From: a virus
Virus genome (UHGV): UHGV-0060500
DNA: 52,459 nucleotides
Direction: 5' to 3' (one strand)
Below the pieces are notes generated by a model. That model saw nothing but the letters and a program-made list of their open reading frames with translations, did not search any database and had not been told where the DNA came from. Positions 37,774 through 44,271 of the stretch are shown here, piece after piece (position 1 is the stretch's first letter; each line of letters begins with the position of its first letter). Both the position numbers and the translations under genes were made by a program.

Positions 37774-38472
37774 ATGATCCATGTTCGTACAGGACAATTT
37801 GCTGCCGTGGTGAACGGTAAGCGCTATGAGTTTAATCCTTGCTTTGCTGCGATGGCTAAAATCGGCAACGATAGTGAGCTTGTCGAATATTTCGCACTTA
37901 TCCACGGCGGCAAATATCCATCACGATTGCCAGCAGATCCAGACCTACGCAATCGCATTCTGGCGCGGTGTTATGGTGAAATAGTTAAGACATCAATGCA
38001 CATCCTGAAATGTTGCTCAGACGACGAAATAGGCCCGTTATTGGGCGAATGCTGGTTTACTCCTTCGGGTAAGTTAAAGTTAAAGCCCGGATTAATGCCG
38101 ATCGAGGATATCATCACGCTTGCGCAGCACTGCATGTACCACGGTCTTATTGGTGATGGCCCGGAAGAAGAGTCCGGGGAAATCCCGGAAGGGGAATATA
38201 AGCCGACTTTTAACGTCCTTGAATTCGTCTATTCTGCCGTTGCTCACCTGGGCTTGTCAGAATCGGAAGCATGGAATATGACAATGACCGGATATAGGGC
38301 CGCTGTACGCGCTAAAACGCCGCCAGACGAAAGAAACGAGAAAAGCAAGCCAAACATTCACATAAATAAACGTGCTTATGACGAGCAAATGGAGGCCGCT
38401 AAAAAGGCACTAGAAAGAATGAAAAATCGTGAGCAAGAAAAGCCCGGTAGATCCGGGCGTTTTGCTAATTGA
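37774..38472 (+). CDS. Putative tail assembly chaperone
   Basis: About 233 aa between the major tail and tape measure genes; SD AAGGTGA. Confidence 0.45.
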   Translation: MIHVRTGQFAAVVNGKRYEFNPCFAAMAKIGNDSELVEYFALIHGGKYPSRLPADPDLRNRILARCYGEIVKTSMHILKCCSDDEIGPLLGECWFTPSGKLKLKPGLMPIEDIITLAQHCMYHGLIGDGPEEESGEIPEGEYKPTFNVLEFVYSAVAHLGLSESEAWNMTMTGYRAAVRAKTPPDERNEKSKPNIHINKRAYDEQMEAAKKALERMKNREQEKPGRSGRFAN

Positions 38473-38839
38473 AATCTTTAATTGCTGTACCTGGTGAACT
38501 GTGTGTGATTGTATTGTATACAGACTTTGCCTTACTGCGATCTTTCCATTCTTTTAGGATGCAGTTATCAAACTTTGCGATAACCCTTGAAGGGGATAAT
38601 TCTTCAACATCCATGTAAGTAAATCCTATCGTGCTGGTTACTGAATACCATACGTGATAACTATAATTACCGTCATGCTCGATTCTTTGTGGTTCCCCCA
38701 TTATTTTATTCACTTGCTCACAAGTCATTCCAACTTGCAAATTTTTATCAGCTAACTTAACGAAATCAGTTGATCTTGCGCACCCTGTAAGAGCTAAAGC
38801 CATAACACCAATGAGAACCGCTTTGATTATTTTTTTCAT
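38465..38839 (-). CDS. Lipoprotein (124 aa), antisense moron in the tail module
   Basis: Signal peptide with lipobox LTGC (MKKIIKAVLIGVMALALTGC). Confidence 0.6.
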   Translation of the reverse strand: MKKIIKAVLIGVMALALTGCARSTDFVKLADKNLQVGMTCEQVNKIMGEPQRIEHDGNYSYHVWYSVTSTIGFTYMDVEELSPSRVIAKFDNCILKEWKDRSKAKSVYNTITHSSPGTAIKDFN

Positions 38840-38849
38840 GATTTACCCC

Positions 38850-39509
38850 TTAATTCCAGTTGCAAGCGTTTTTCACTTTGTCGATGTGGTTATAAAGACC
38901 ATCAATGTTAAACACTGCTTTCTCAATGTCGCCAGCTTCCGGCACTACTTCAATGATGAATTGTTTTTCGTTAACCAGTTTTTTAATCATTGGGATGGCT
39001 TTTTTGCCGTCCCATAATCCAAGAGCTTTATAATTAGTTGACCGCCACCACTCAGTAGCTACAGCTTTGTGAACGCCGATCCGGTAGTTAATATAAGTAG
39101 TGTCCCCGGCGTCAGTTACATGGTGTGACCATGCTACGAACATTTTTGTTTTATTACCCTGGCAAGCGATTGTTAATACCGGTTTATTCTTATCCTGTGC
39201 CTTCAGTGTCGGGAAAGCATCAAGACTTCCGCTGAATTGTTCTGCTTTCACAAAAAGGAATACGTTTTTTGCGTCCTGCATATCATCTTTTCTTTCAACT
39301 ACAAGCCACTGTTTACCAGCATTTTCTTTTTCTAACTGTGCATCGTATGCGGCTTGTTTTGCTTGTTGTTCTGCAAGCCATTTAGCATTTTTCTCTGCTA
39401 ATGCTTGTTGCTCTTGATTGGTCACTATAGGCGCTTTTTCATTATCCTCATTGCAACCAACCAGACCCAATACCGCCGCAATCATTGCCACTTTTGCTAA
39501 CCGTTTCAT
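38850..39509 (-). CDS. Lipoprotein (219 aa), antisense moron in the tail module
   Basis: Signal peptide with lipobox LVGC (MKRLAKVAMIAAVLGLVGC); Gln/Ala-rich linker. Confidence 0.6.
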   Translation of the reverse strand: MKRLAKVAMIAAVLGLVGCNEDNEKAPIVTNQEQQALAEKNAKWLAEQQAKQAAYDAQLEKENAGKQWLVVERKDDMQDAKNVFLFVKAEQFSGSLDAFPTLKAQDKNKPVLTIACQGNKTKMFVAWSHHVTDAGDTTYINYRIGVHKAVATEWWRSTNYKALGLWDGKKAIPMIKKLVNEKQFIIEVVPEAGDIEKAVFNIDGLYNHIDKVKNACNWN

Positions 39510-39636: not shown

Positions 39637-41979
39637 ATGGCTACCAGTGTAGGTACAATTTATTACGAAGTTGATGCGAAAACTGGTCAACTTCTCGTTG
39701 CACAACGACAGGCAGACCAGGCCTTTGATCGTATAGAGCGCGGCGCAAAACAGGCTGACCGCCAGGTAAACACCCTGAAAACATCCATCAAGGCACTGAC
39801 CAGGGTTATCCATCTGCTAATTGCTGCGGAGGCTGTGCGCCAATTTATGGATATGGCGGAGCAAGCAAAAATGCTTCGCGTAAAAATCAAAATGCTTACG
39901 GGCGATGCGGAGTCCGCCGGACGGGTTTTCGACGGCCTGAAAGCAATATCCAGGGAGACGGGGCAGAGCCTGAAAGATACTGGCGAATTATGGCAAGGCC
40001 TGGCTATCTCACTAAAAAACACCTCCGCTACGGAAGGGCAATTGCTTAACCTGGTTGGCACTATTCAGAAAATGGGTGCATTAGGCGGCGCGTCAGCGGA
40101 ACAGATGTCTAACTCAATGCGTCAATTCCGTCAGTCTATCGACGGCGGTGTTCTTCGTGCCGAAGAATTTAACAGCCTGCTTGAAAATACGCCGACCATC
40201 GTACAAACAATGGCCCGCCATATGGGATTATCAATGGGCCAGTTCCGCGCCGAAATGCTGGACGGCAAGATCACGGCTGAAAGGATGGTTAACGCAATAC
40301 AGGCGGCTACGCAGGAAACAAACGATAAGTTTGCTCAGTTGCCGCGCACATCCGGCATGGCTATCAATGAGCTTAAAGTAGAAATTATGGGCCTTGTTGA
40401 GCAGTTGGATGATCTTTTTGGCGTGTCAGATGGCGTTGTTTCAGCTATCGACTTGATCACGAAAGGCGTTAAAGGGCTTGGCGATGGCGCTAAATTCGCT
40501 AAAACCTGCTTCGACACACTCAAAACGGCTGGTAGCGAATTTATCGACATGTTTGATGATGTGGCTGTTAAGGCTGGAGAGGTGGCAGAGAAGATCATCG
40601 CAATGGTGACGCCAATCAAGGCGCTAATGGATGGCTATAAATGGATGAAGGAGGTAGTAGGAGAGCAAACCGACGAATATAACAGCAACTACGAGAAGAA
40701 ATACGGGAAGACCGTTGGCAAGGTCATGCAACTACAGGATGATCTGACCGCAGCAATCCAGGCTACAGAAGAAGCAAGGAAAAATGAACAGAATGCTGCC
40801 AATGACGGAGCGATTACCGGATTCGACAAGCCAGTAGACAAGCCGAAAAAACAGAAAAAAGAGAAGAAATCGGAAGCTGATCGGCTTGGTGACAAAGGTA
40901 TAAGCGTTTCTGATCAGTATAACAAAGACGCCGCCGCCATGCGCAAAGCGTTGGAGAACGGCAAGGCCATTGATGCTGCATTTGCCCAGGGTAAAATCAC
41001 GCTCCTTGAGTACCGCGCCGCGCAAAAAGGGATCGGCAAGGAACTGAAAGAAGAATTAGCACAAATTCCGGTAGATGAATTGCGTGATAAATGGTCACAA
41101 ATAGTAAGCCCGATGGATCAGCTAAAAGGCGAAGTTGACCCCATCCAGCAGGCGCAAAATGAATGGGCCATCCGTAAGCAAATGCTTATAGACCTGGGCG
41201 CTACTGAAGCGCAACAGAAACAGGAATTGTTAGCCTATGAGCAACAGATCCGCGATCTGAAATGGGAACAATGGCAGGCGCAAAGCGACACAAACGGCCT
41301 TATCGGTGATTGTGTTAATGGCCTTAAAGGCGGAATGAGTAATGCGCTTGTTGGCCTGTTAAACGGCACTCAATCATTGAGTGATGTTTTTGCTAACTTA
41401 GGAAGCAATATACTCGGCAATATCGGTAACAGACTCTCAGACATAGCTGCAAACTGGATAGCAGATCAGATCATGATGGAGACACAAAGCAAGGCCACGC
41501 AAACAAGTACAACAGCAAGCGCGGTAGCAGCTCAGGGAAGCATTGCTGCGGCGGCGGCCCCAGCAGCGGCGGCAACTGCGGCGTCAACTGGCGGTAGCTG
41601 GGCGGCGGCTGGTTCGGCGGCGCTCACTGCGATCATGTCGCTGGCTACGTCAATTTTCGGCGGCGGTCGCTTTAATGGTGGTAGCGTCATTGGTGGTAAT
41701 ATGTACCGCGTAGGGGAACACAACAGGCCGGAGCTATTCCAGACATCTAACGGCAATCAATATATGATCCCTGGCGAGAACGGCAGAGTTATTCCTGGCC
41801 GTGATATTGGCGGCGGTGGCGGTATTAGTATGCCTGTCAGTATCAGCATTCAGACCACGAACGGATTCAGCGACGAAGACAGCCGCAGACTTGAATTAAC
41901 AATGGAACGTGTAGCCATGAAAATGATAACAAGGGAATCTCAAAGACCAGGCGGAATGTTGCAACCTCGCCGCAAATAA
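39637..41979 (+). CDS. Tail tape measure protein
   Basis: 780 aa, helical N-terminal two thirds, Gly/Ala-rich C-terminal region; position before gpM/L/K/I/J homologues. Confidence 0.8.
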   Translation: MATSVGTIYYEVDAKTGQLLVAQRQADQAFDRIERGAKQADRQVNTLKTSIKALTRVIHLLIAAEAVRQFMDMAEQAKMLRVKIKMLTGDAESAGRVFDGLKAISRETGQSLKDTGELWQGLAISLKNTSATEGQLLNLVGTIQKMGALGGASAEQMSNSMRQFRQSIDGGVLRAEEFNSLLENTPTIVQTMARHMGLSMGQFRAEMLDGKITAERMVNAIQAATQETNDKFAQLPRTSGMAINELKVEIMGLVEQLDDLFGVSDGVVSAIDLITKGVKGLGDGAKFAKTCFDTLKTAGSEFIDMFDDVAVKAGEVAEKIIAMVTPIKALMDGYKWMKEVVGEQTDEYNSNYEKKYGKTVGKVMQLQDDLTAAIQATEEARKNEQNAANDGAITGFDKPVDKPKKQKKEKKSEADRLGDKGISVSDQYNKDAAAMRKALENGKAIDAAFAQGKITLLEYRAAQKGIGKELKEELAQIPVDELRDKWSQIVSPMDQLKGEVDPIQQAQNEWAIRKQMLIDLGATEAQQKQELLAYEQQIRDLKWEQWQAQSDTNGLIGDCVNGLKGGMSNALVGLLNGTQSLSDVFANLGSNILGNIGNRLSDIAANWIADQIMMETQSKATQTSTTASAVAAQGSIAAAAAPAAAATAASTGGSWAAAGSAALTAIMSLATSIFGGGRFNGGSVIGGNMYRVGEHNRPELFQTSNGNQYMIPGENGRVIPGRDIGGGGGISMPVSISIQTTNGFSDEDSRRLELTMERVAMKMITRESQRPGGMLQPRRK

Positions 41980-41983
41980 ACTA

Positions 41984-42012
41984 AACCCCGGTGCAATGCC
42001 GGGGTTATTTTT
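41984..42012 (+). terminator. Rho-independent terminator after the tape measure gene
   Basis: AACCCCGGTGCAATGCCGGGGTT followed by ATTTTT. Confidence 0.7.
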
Positions 42013-42065
42013 CGTATTTATAAACGACCATTCCGCGCGATATATCCCCTTTCGAATATCTCGAC

Positions 42066-42320
42066 TCACTTATGAGTGCCTTTCACGCCACATAACTTGT
42101 TATAGGCATGGTGCTCAACAATTAACCAAACCTTCAAATCTTCGCTAAACAGCCTCCAATCAAGATTGATATCCATTTTGTATCCGTAACCGTCGCGTAA
42201 CTTTTTGGGGTAAACTTCTTTTCTCAGAAAGGCTTTAAGTAATTCCTTACCTTTCTTGATGATCCGGTCCTGTGCGTTTTTCTGTGCTTTCAGATTTCTG
42301 TCAATCGCTACCAGTTTCAT
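42066..42320 (-). CDS. Small basic protein (84 aa), possible RelE/YafQ-like toxin; antisense moron
   Basis: C-terminal ...DW...GTHK loosely resembles the YafQ C-terminal pattern (EPDW...RTGTHAALF) as recalled; low certainty. Confidence 0.4.
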   Translation of the reverse strand: MKLVAIDRNLKAQKNAQDRIIKKGKELLKAFLRKEVYPKKLRDGYGYKMDINLDWRLFSEDLKVWLIVEHHAYNKLCGVKGTHK

Positions 42321-42337
42321 AACTCACCCCATCATCC

Positions 42338-42493
42338 TTAGTTAAGTGCCTTCAGGAAGAAGTCCCGGTATTCATCTTCTTTCGCATTCATCATGAATTG
42401 ACCGTATTTGAATGCGTCGTCGAAACCCTTAACGATTGCTATTTCCACTTGTTCGAATGCGTTATTTAGCATTACTACTACATAGCGTTTCAT
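42338..42493 (-). CDS. Small protein (51 aa) upstream of and coupled to the 84 aa gene (possible antitoxin)
   Basis: ORF ending 17 bp before the next start; MKRYVVVMLNNAFEQVEIAIVKGFDDAFKYG... Confidence 0.35.
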   Translation of the reverse strand: MKRYVVVMLNNAFEQVEIAIVKGFDDAFKYGQFMMNAKEDEYRDFFLKALN

Positions 42494-42660
42494 TTTGGGC
42501 CTCCTTCGTTGGTACTACTTTCTTCTTGCTTTCTATATACATCTTGTTGCGTGCTATGTGAAGCCATTTTGTAAACTAGCTATAATCATTGTGACAATGA
42601 TCTTATTTTTCGCGTAGAAGCGCGTAAAGATATATACAAAATGTAACTTGTGGGGGTTTT

Positions 42661-43014
42661 ATGCCGGAAGTGTTCAGATGGACGCCGCAAAGAAGCTACA
42701 GCGTGACCAGGAAGCCAGACGTATCTGTTGTTAAGCTGGGCGATGGTTATGAGCAAAGACAGGTAAAAGGTATCAATCCATTGCTTGATAGCTACACCCT
42801 GGTGTTTAAAGGCAGTAGCGCCGGATGTGGTGATGGTGGAAACGTAGCAATCCAGGCGGAAGCATTCTTGAGGGCGCGCGGCGCGGTCGAGGCTTTTTAC
42901 TGGTCGCCGTCAATGGATAACGTGCAAAGGCTTTTTGTCTGTCGGCAATGGAGCATGACTAAAGACGGGCCTTTGTACACGCTAAACGCAACGTTTGAGC
43001 AAGTTGTTGGCTAA
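42661..43014 (+). CDS. Minor tail protein M (lambda gpM homologue)
   Basis: 117 aa; FRW...GDGYEQRQ...FYWSP...TFEQVVG matches lambda M closely as recalled. Confidence 0.85.
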   Translation: MPEVFRWTPQRSYSVTRKPDVSVVKLGDGYEQRQVKGINPLLDSYTLVFKGSSAGCGDGGNVAIQAEAFLRARGAVEAFYWSPSMDNVQRLFVCRQWSMTKDGPLYTLNATFEQVVG

Positions 43015-43367: not shown

Positions 43368-43616
43368 CTATAAGTTATCACGCAGATAATTAACGCCCTT
43401 ATCAGTGACGAATGAATGGTTAACCTGGTTTTCATCCGTCATGATGATGAATAACTTTTCATGTAGGTATTTCGCTTTCGGGTACAGCGTTAAACAGACC
43501 TGGTACAGTATCCCGCGCTCAATCAGCAAATCAATAAATTCGTGTTCATGATAACCGATGAGGCGGGCGGCCTGTTTCAACGTGTACACATAATCACCGT
43601 GATTGCGCCGCCCCAT
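43368..43616 (-). CDS. Small HTH-like protein (82 aa), antisense moron
   Basis: YTLKQAARLIGYHEHEFIDLL resembles a helix-turn-helix. Confidence 0.4.
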   Translation of the reverse strand: MGRRNHGDYVYTLKQAARLIGYHEHEFIDLLIERGILYQVCLTLYPKAKYLHEKLFIIMTDENQVNHSFVTDKGVNYLRDNL

Positions 43617-43625
43617 GTTGCCGCC

Positions 43626-43973
43626 TTATTTATCGAATGCTGAAAGGTTATCGATACAGAAATCTTTCGCCGCTTTTTCGTATTCGCGTTTTGCTTCTGG
43701 ATCGTCAGCCGGGAAACCTTTTGCGTGTATTTCACCAGGGCAAGACTGGTCCATAGAATCTGCATAATAAGCAGTGAAGCTACCATTAATATCTTTCGGG
43801 TTCATATCTTCCACCTCATCAACTATCTGTACCGGATTAGCAGCATATTTCACTGGATGGCCTAAACTACATTCAAGAATCCTGCCTTCTTCCAGGGCTA
43901 CTTCTTCGCTATCAAATAATCCGAAACACTCCTTGCTACCACTTAACCACACATCAAGACTGTATTTTTTCAT
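43626..43973 (-). CDS. Hypothetical protein (about 115 aa) with N-terminal region paralogous to the upstream small gene
   Basis: MKKYSLDVWLSGSKECFGLFDSEEVALEEGRILECSLGHPVKY; SD GAGG before the ATG at 43973. Confidence 0.45.
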   Translation of the reverse strand: MKKYSLDVWLSGSKECFGLFDSEEVALEEGRILECSLGHPVKYAANPVQIVDEVEDMNPKDINGSFTAYYADSMDQSCPGEIHAKGFPADDPEAKREYEKAAKDFCIDNLSAFDK

Positions 43974-44142
43974 TTTTGTTAGCCTCATATTTGACAGGTT
44001 CGATCTGGTATCCCAAAAGGCGGTCATCCTCAGCAAGTAAAAGCGCGTCAACCAATGCTTCACCCTCGTCGTCATACAGGGCGATAACCTTTTCCCTACC
44101 GTCTGTCATGAATACCGTCAACTTCCATAGCTTTTCAGTCAT
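43954..44142 (-). CDS. Hypothetical small protein (about 62 aa), paralogue of the N-terminus of the next gene
   Basis: MTEKLWKLTVFMTDGREKVIALYDDEGEALVDALLLAEDDRLLGYQIEPVKY; SD GGAGGTG. Confidence 0.45.
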   Translation of the reverse strand: MTEKLWKLTVFMTDGREKVIALYDDEGEALVDALLLAEDDRLLGYQIEPVKYEANKNEKIQS

Positions 44143-44271
44143 AACGCACCTCCGCGCCATTTTGTTAACTATGCTTCCGTTTGAGTAAAATATACATATT
44201 GTAAAAACCGCGATCAATCCATTTTGGTATGATTTAGCGTGACGCAGATCACAGAATGACAAGGTGAGAAA

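Follow-up and report, generated by a model that had tools for sequence, protein, structure and literature searches.

The virus genome UHGV-0060500 (52,459 nt; this whole stretch of DNA was analysed and is called the window) carries a cassette of two small genes between its tape measure gene and gpM, antisense to both. The products, of 51 and 84 amino acids (aa), are designated A51 and T84. We found that the cassette is toxin-antitoxin (TA)-like in layout, with a small acidic open reading frame (ORF), a short spacer, a basic ORF encoding a toxin fold and its own terminator. We tentatively read it, at a little below an even chance, as a TA-like accessory operon in which T84 would be a RelE/YoeB-fold protein that probably cleaves RNA, while A51, lineage-specific and dispensable, would probably moderate it. 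T84 is a new member of a known, experimentally uncharacterised family, and its gene is already annotated as a ParE-like toxin. Phages and strains devoid of A51 still keep a whole T84 gene under selection, and for this reason the cassette is not an obligate addiction module.

Layout and conservation of the cassette

A sequence-only reading of the window had described two antisense ORFs of 51 and 84 aa, 17 bp apart, at 42066-42493, and had taken them for a possible TA pair. Their coordinates, minus strand and placement were all borne out. The features of the locus are as follows:

42338-42493, minus strand: A51, ATG start, 51 aa; PHROG 29810, a function-unknown family; putative partner of T84
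42321-42337, minus strand: spacer between A51 and T84, 17 nt
42066-42320, minus strand: T84, ATG start, 84 aa; Pfam PF24732 (ParE_like); RelE/YoeB/YafQ-like predicted fold
42202-42210, minus strand: C4A5 homopolymer tract in T84 codons 38-40, a frameshift hot spot
42500-42505, minus strand: Shine-Dalgarno sequence of A51, AGGAGG, 6 nt ahead of the ATG, read from the sequence
42323-42330, minus strand: Shine-Dalgarno-like GGGGTGAG of T84, within the 17-nt spacer, read from the sequence
42557-42562, minus strand: candidate -35 hexamer TTCACA, read from the sequence
42534-42539, minus strand: candidate -10 hexamer TATATA (TATACA in some alleles), with TG ahead
41984-42006, both strands: bidirectional intrinsic terminator from a terminator scan, a G+C-rich hairpin with the inverted repeat AACCCCGG/CCGGGGTT
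42585-42601, both strands: perfect palindrome ATCATTGTgACAATGAT (8+1+8), upstream of the candidate promoter and weakly indicated as a possible operator
39637-41979, plus strand: tape measure gene, 780 aa
42661-43014, plus strand: gpM (PF05939, E 1e-27)

Allele sets were collected by scanning IMG/VR with both proteins and re-mapping by tblastn, which covered about 50 related phage contigs. None of the 23 nucleotide alleles of A51 was interrupted, and neither was any of the 34 of T84; the ratios of nonsynonymous to synonymous substitution (dN/dS) were 0.05 and 0.08, respectively. Because the alleles are unbroken and these ratios are low, A51 and T84 are real genes and not chance ORFs. The ratios point to strong purifying selection on both, and A51 is the more conserved of the two. 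The sequence-only reading had left room for doubt over the translation of the upstream ORF; as far as sequence evidence goes, this doubt is countered by the intact A51 alleles and their dN/dS. The 84-aa product was rightly called basic (isoelectric point, pI, 9.9; net charge +10), and A51 is mildly acidic (pI 5.1). The window region is 100% identical to prophages of Escherichia coli M1/5, FAH and MS 21-1, and 81-84% identical to the mEp021/mEp554/mEp010 group of Nus-dependent non-lambdoid coliphages, in whose genome paper the genes for A51 and T84 are not discussed (PMC11893012). Of the closed E. coli genomes, about 0.6% harbour gut coliphages that carry the cassette.

The two genes keep a tight arrangement. 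Wherever A51 occurs, in some 50 phage contigs and in 34 closed genomes of E. coli, T84 lies 16-21 nt downstream, and the spacer stays within this length across all related loci. As in the adjacent genes of type II TA systems, they lie on the same strand, 17 nt apart, and share a candidate promoter and one terminator. Beyond T84 the gene content changes from phage to phage: the window has no cargo there, mEp021 and MagusPhagus have two genes each, and mEp515 has five, one of them for an HNH endonuclease. In mEp515 (L090, 1822-2570) this gene overlaps the 3' end of the T84 homologue, and four more small antisense genes come after it, which suggests that cargo is readily inserted in the slot downstream of T84. 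The terminator, the conserved candidate promoter hexamers, the antisense orientation and the variable downstream cargo are those of a phage 'moron'. The cassette would accordingly be named a two-gene accessory operon of this kind in a mEp021-type temperate coliphage, probably transcribed from a promoter of its own in the direction opposite to the tail genes, with transcription expected to end at the terminator shared with the tape measure gene.

The candidate promoter lies in the intergenic region between A51 and gpM, which is 167 nt long and contains TTCACA-17 nt-TATATA (42562-42534, minus strand). In 42 unique upstream regions, TTCAC was kept in nearly all and TGTATA was invariant, while the 17-nt spacer between the hexamers varied. 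This comparative conservation suggests that the element serves as the cassette's own promoter. A consensus promoter scan flagged no minus-strand promoter; it skipped the candidate -10 because the last base differs from the consensus T. Only alleles of the window's own lineage have the palindrome at 42585-42601 in perfect form; it is degenerate in the others, which makes an essential role improbable. Adjoining it in the divergent A51-gpM region is a strongly conserved block GTTACATTTTGTATATATCTTTACGCGCTTCTACGCGAAAAAT (minus strand, 42609-42650), which may consist of promoter or operator elements serving either gpM or the cassette.

Two flanking elements had also been proposed from the sequence, a terminator on one side and a copy of a dispersed motif on the other. 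The terminator was recovered, since the hairpin at 41984-42006 scores on both strands, and it is common to the tape measure gene and the cassette. The dispersed motif could not be upheld, as the window contains a single copy of the palindrome and a single copy of the conserved intergenic block (42609-42637). An Rfam scan of 41800-42800 gave sub-threshold chance matches only, and thus no known RNA antitoxin or small RNA in this interval.

Family, predicted fold and conserved residues of T84

T84 matched Pfam PF24732 with 45.3 bits, well above the gathering cutoff of 24.4 (E 9e-12), and the match ran from residue 19 to 75 of T84 and from position 2 to 67 of the 67-position profile. It also matched PHROG 1525. 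No other Pfam family was matched at E<=10, including the ParE family PF05016 and YoeB; NCBIfam and PADLOC gave no match, and neither did sequence and profile searches of the Protein Data Bank (PDB). When the T84 profile was compared with E. coli YoeB by hhalign, 15 helix columns were aligned with a probability of 1.5%, which is not significant. At the sequence level, membership of T84 in the YoeB/Txe, YafQ, RelE or ParE families is not supported. A profile search of 1.84 billion representatives returned 9 matches only, and a re-search with one distant member (P0100) as query returned that member alone; the same query gave no match in viral contigs. Four distant relatives of T84 (27-54% identity) were all PF24732 members, and all distant relatives examined also matched this family. 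In E. coli M1/5, N25 and further closed genomes, the identical gene bears the PGAP label 'ParE family toxin-like protein', and the RefSeq and PGAP curators have independently called relatives 'YafQ-like ribonuclease toxin' and 'ParE family toxin-like protein'. A literature search on PF24732 and 'ParE family toxin-like' found no papers and no experimental characterisation.

The fold of T84 was modelled twice. The first AlphaFold model, made with close homologues only, had a predicted local distance difference test score (pLDDT) of 64 and meaningless Foldseek matches (MPND, WW domains), and was dropped. The second, an AlphaFold2 model with four distant members added, reached a pLDDT of 88.5 and a predicted template modelling score of 0.77. 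It agrees with the fold of the RelE/ParE toxin superfamily, which is a compact alpha/beta fold with an N-terminal helix on a 3-5-stranded antiparallel sheet. Foldseek placed Staphylococcus aureus and E. coli YoeB at the top, followed by YafQ, an Agrobacterium YoeB/ParE toxin, ParE2 and GraT. The model resembles the YoeB, YafQ, RelE, HigB and ParE toxins above anything else in the PDB, and the RNases among them (YoeB, HigB, YafQ and RelE) rank above the ParE proteins. Considering that the Foldseek E-values are weak and that the best probability is 0.94, we assign T84 to the superfamily at the level of the predicted fold with moderate confidence. The guess of a RelE/YafQ-type fold made from the sequence alone is supported by this confident model and by the PF24732 match.

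Among 11 diverse PF24732 members, residues L41, G44, R56, H70 and N74 were invariant and K40 and Y73 nearly so, giving the family signature (K/R)(K/R)L...G...R(L/I)...HxxYN. The cue from which the toxin likeness was originally drawn, '...DW...GTHK', did not survive this comparison, because GTHK is limited to a close subgroup and the family-wide signature differs. By manual comparison by eye, R56, within the WRL strand, parallels the HRL of YoeB (R65) and the YRL of RelE (R61), and HxxYN is placed where YoeB and RelE carry C-terminal catalytic residues. The catalytic residues include E46, R65, H83 and Y84 in YoeB and R61, R81 and Y87 in RelE. An acidic general base of the YoeB type is absent from the aligned position of T84 in this manual alignment. 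Because of the conserved residue set and the WRL and HxxYN parallels to YoeB and RelE, an RNase mechanism is favoured for T84 over gyrase poisoning of the ParE type. Judging from R56, H70, N74, K40 and Y73, T84 would be a RelE-type RNA-cleaving enzyme, with translated mRNA as its probable substrate, and not a gyrase poison like ParE.

T84 nevertheless departs from each of the known systems with which it was compared. It has no YoeB match in Pfam, a beta-hairpin in its model replaces the first helix of YoeB, and it ends in HxxYN and a short C-terminal helix whereas YoeB ends in RYHY; moreover, A51 is not YefM/Phd-like as the upstream gene of YefM-YoeB is. YafQ (DinJ-YafQ) and RelE (RelBE) are ribosome-dependent mRNA endonucleases. 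The likeness of GTHK to GTH(A), on which the sequence-only reading leaned, is not conserved in PF24732, and neither are the RelE residues K52 and K54. Unlike ParE (ParDE, and PaaR2-PaaA2-ParE2 of E. coli O157 prophages), T84 keeps RNase-like conserved residues, and the cassette is without the third, regulator gene of PaaR2-PaaA2-ParE2.

Linkage of A51 to T84 and PF24732 genes elsewhere

A51 matched PHROG 29810 (E 9e-40), and this family is confined to mEp021-type phages. It had no match in Pfam, NCBIfam or PADLOC and fell into no antitoxin, ribbon-helix-helix (RHH), helix-turn-helix (HTH), Phd/YefM or AbrB class. Searches of the PDB with the single sequence and with a profile gave nothing below E 0.4, and BLASTP of A51 against the neighbours of other PF24732 members gave no match. 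By eye, A51 was considered as a possible RHH protein or as a relative of the small ORFs at the head of a second antisense cluster of the window. A51 could not be placed among the type II antitoxin classes, as its only family is PHROG 29810. As to the autoregulation typical of such antitoxins, the palindrome at 42585-42601 is not conserved. We suggest that A51 is a lineage-specific small acidic protein, co-transcribed with T84, which most likely binds or tempers it; the two products are complementary in charge (pI 5.1 against 9.9).

Natural variants separate the two genes. In two phage contigs (L021 and L024), T84 is intact while A51 and the spacer are cleanly absent, so that the Shine-Dalgarno sequence of A51 is fused to the start codon of T84. 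The prophage of E. coli UMNK88, a closed genome, has the same sequence as L024, and no A51 was found across that whole genome at blastn sensitivity. L021, a diverged metagenomic phage, differs from L024 by 6.6% across the same deletion junction, and their T84 genes differ at 7 synonymous and 3 nonsynonymous sites (ratio of nonsynonymous to synonymous polymorphism, pN/pS, 0.10). These differences indicate that the state without A51 has persisted with T84 still under selection. In addition, in E. coli MFDS1019527 a 1-nt deletion outside any homopolymer truncates A51 to MKRYE*, and T84 is intact and annotated. The rule of type II systems that an intact toxin is never kept without its antitoxin does not hold for T84. 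The A51-less and A51-frameshift variants are ready-made controls for telling a true TA module from a solo effector.

A51 proteins of identical sequence occur beside T84 alleles of 100%, 82% and 67% identity, and a recombination joint is located within the 5' end of T84; the two proteins thus give no sign of co-evolution.

T84 is itself disrupted in some database entries. The variants P0035, P0036, P0039 and P0040 lose the frame at the C4A5 tract (42202-42210), and the truncated variants P0034, P0037 and P0038 break at nearby A-runs. The tract may act as a mutational on/off switch, or sequencing errors may lie behind the frameshifts. Such alleles could fit a gene that is sometimes costly as well as they could fit sequencing error.

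We also examined the settings of PF24732 genes in other mobile elements. In metagenomic phage-like contigs they lie within arrays of small same-strand genes, and in virulent phages they lie in runs of such genes (Alcyoneusvirus K64-1 gp471, annotated 'YafQ-like ribonuclease toxin'; Asteriusvirus 121Q/PBECO4; Sortsnevirus; Murrayvirus). In the jumbo phages (Alcyoneusvirus and Asteriusvirus), as in contigs related to them, a conserved gene for a protein of 118-134 aa (38-52% identity; no Pfam match) stands ahead of the PF24732 gene. In Sortsnevirus and Murrayvirus, it overlaps an unrelated upstream gene by 4 nt, and an acidic gene of 92-103 aa (41% identity between both phages) follows 5-9 nt downstream, an arrangement that could be a toxin-first partner pair. 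The strongest PF24732 matches (E 1e-20) came from Pantoea agglomerans plasmids. In these plasmids, which resemble integrative and conjugative elements (ICE-like, MPF_G), PF24732 is a single gene with no adjacent small partner gene, within the conserved backbone ParB - DUF2857 - [PF24732] - STY4528 replication protein - PFL_4669. None of these other neighbours resembles A51 or a known antitoxin, and no partner is conserved family-wide. The loci are:

L093 1066-1749 (K64-1 gp470-gp471), L006 1606-2251 and L089 2034-2755: jumbo-type upstream gene with the PF24732 gene
L094 1558-2063 (phage sortkaff) and L095 800-1357 (phage vB-Eco-KMB41): Sortsnevirus/Murrayvirus loci
L097 2001-2249 and L098 1956-2204: Pantoea agglomerans plasmids

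Considering all these observations, the original proposal of a TA pair stands as to layout and toxin fold, while the comparisons do not support the pairing itself: A51 has no antitoxin match, T84 is kept without it, the neighbours of PF24732 genes vary from one element to another, and co-evolution is not seen. All of these weigh against a TA pairing in the strict sense.

Alternative explanations and wider setting

Four other explanations were weighed. A classical type II addiction or abortive-infection module, in which a labile A51 continuously neutralises a growth-arresting T84 so that loss of the prophage or of A51 stops the cell, seems to us unlikely. Its gene order, sizes, 17-nt spacing and single operon would all be as found, and so would the toxin-superfamily fold, the acidic upstream and basic downstream products and the near-universal linkage of A51 and T84 within the phage group; several frameshifted T84 alleles in the databases are likewise what a costly toxin should leave. 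However, UMNK88 carries an intact T84 on the ribosome-binding site of A51 with no A51 detected genome-wide by blastn, the same junction recurs in a phage 6.6% diverged whose T84 is still under purifying selection, and MFDS1019527 keeps T84 with A51 cut to MKRYE*. Furthermore, A51 matches no antitoxin, RHH, HTH, Phd or AbrB protein, and there is no family-wide partner. These same variants agree with the opposite view, which we regard as somewhat unlikely, that T84 is an antitoxin-independent mobile-element effector with a RelE/YoeB fold, made while the element is active and cutting or binding RNA so as to redirect translation or hinder competitors, and that A51 is functionally unrelated to it. 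Here T84 survives without A51, and PF24732 genes in virulent phages, metagenomic contigs and Pantoea plasmids sit beside neighbours unrelated to A51. A conceptual precedent for stand-alone PF24732 genes in virulent phages is T4 RegB, an RNase encoded by a phage that structurally resembles YoeB and RelE and for which no antitoxin is known (PMC3014915). RegB differs in being about twice as long as T84, with another active-site arrangement and no sequence similarity, and it is absent from the fold matches of T84. The mEp021 group also speaks against a functionally unrelated A51, because A51 and T84 behave there as one unit with a spacer of 16-21 nt while everything downstream varies, and A51 was never found apart from T84. 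Nor is the solitary status of PF24732 genes proven, because the acidic downstream gene of Sortsnevirus and Murrayvirus and the conserved upstream gene of the jumbo phages could be lineage-specific partners.

The remaining two explanations concern the activity of T84. The Pfam family name would make it a ParE-type gyrase poison, which traps DNA gyrase and cleaves no RNA. We hold this to be very unlikely, since the best fold matches are all RNases with the ParE proteins lower, the invariant Arg, His and Asn and the near-invariant Lys and Tyr lie at the end of the sheet in the position of a RelE-type active site, and PF05016 was not matched even at the permissive threshold. A catalytically inert protein, with the toxin fold serving as a nucleic-acid-binding regulator or decoy and the cassette devoid of toxic activity, would explain why T84 is tolerated without A51, why ICE-like plasmids have PF24732 genes inside their partition and replication operons and why the acidic general base of YoeB is missing at the manually aligned position. 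It is extremely improbable in our estimate, as R56, H70 and N74 are strictly and Y73 almost strictly kept across members only 23-30% identical, a pattern more like an active site than a scaffold. The reading we prefer is the TA-like accessory operon with a probable RNase and an optional, probably moderating A51. Candidate roles for it would be the exclusion of other phages or the reshaping of translation while the element is active.

A broader hypothesis can be put forward, although we consider it rather doubtful: PF24732 may be a class of RelE/YoeB-fold RNases that act, in the manner of T4 RegB, as antitoxin-independent effectors of mobile elements (temperate, virulent and jumbo phages and ICE-like plasmids), reprogramming or sabotaging translation, with lineage-specific small partners like A51 as optional tuners and not antidotes. 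If it were true, the A51-null phages would be the first hint that mobile elements regularly employ a 'toxin' family on its own. Should T84 prove to be an active RNase, the cassette would be a compact, easily testable example of a toxin-fold enzyme in the tail region of gut coliphages, and it would offer the first experimental handle on a Pfam family whose members occur in temperate, virulent and jumbo phages as well as in ICE-like plasmids. Since the gene was already filed as a ParE-like toxin, the main effect of the finding is to refine an annotation. What it adds are the natural A51-null controls, the RNase-like set of conserved residues and the range of virulent phages and ICE-like elements over which the family is spread.

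The tail region of the window holds other antisense genes. Two lipoprotein-like genes (38465-39509, minus strand) lie between a DUF6246 gene and the tape measure gene. One encodes a 219-aa protein that matches the type VI secretion VasI family (PF11319, E 1e-15), and the other a protein of 124 aa that matches BamE and DUF7738 weakly; the pair looks like a further accessory insertion in the tail operon. A second antisense cluster (43368-44262, minus strand) is found between gpL and the 65-aa gene that follows gpM. Besides an 82-aa fragment of a KilAC/ANT-like antirepressor (PF03374, E 1e-6), it contains two or three small ORFs, in which a hydrophobic hairpin followed by an acidic helix at the start gives, by eye only, an A51-like pattern.
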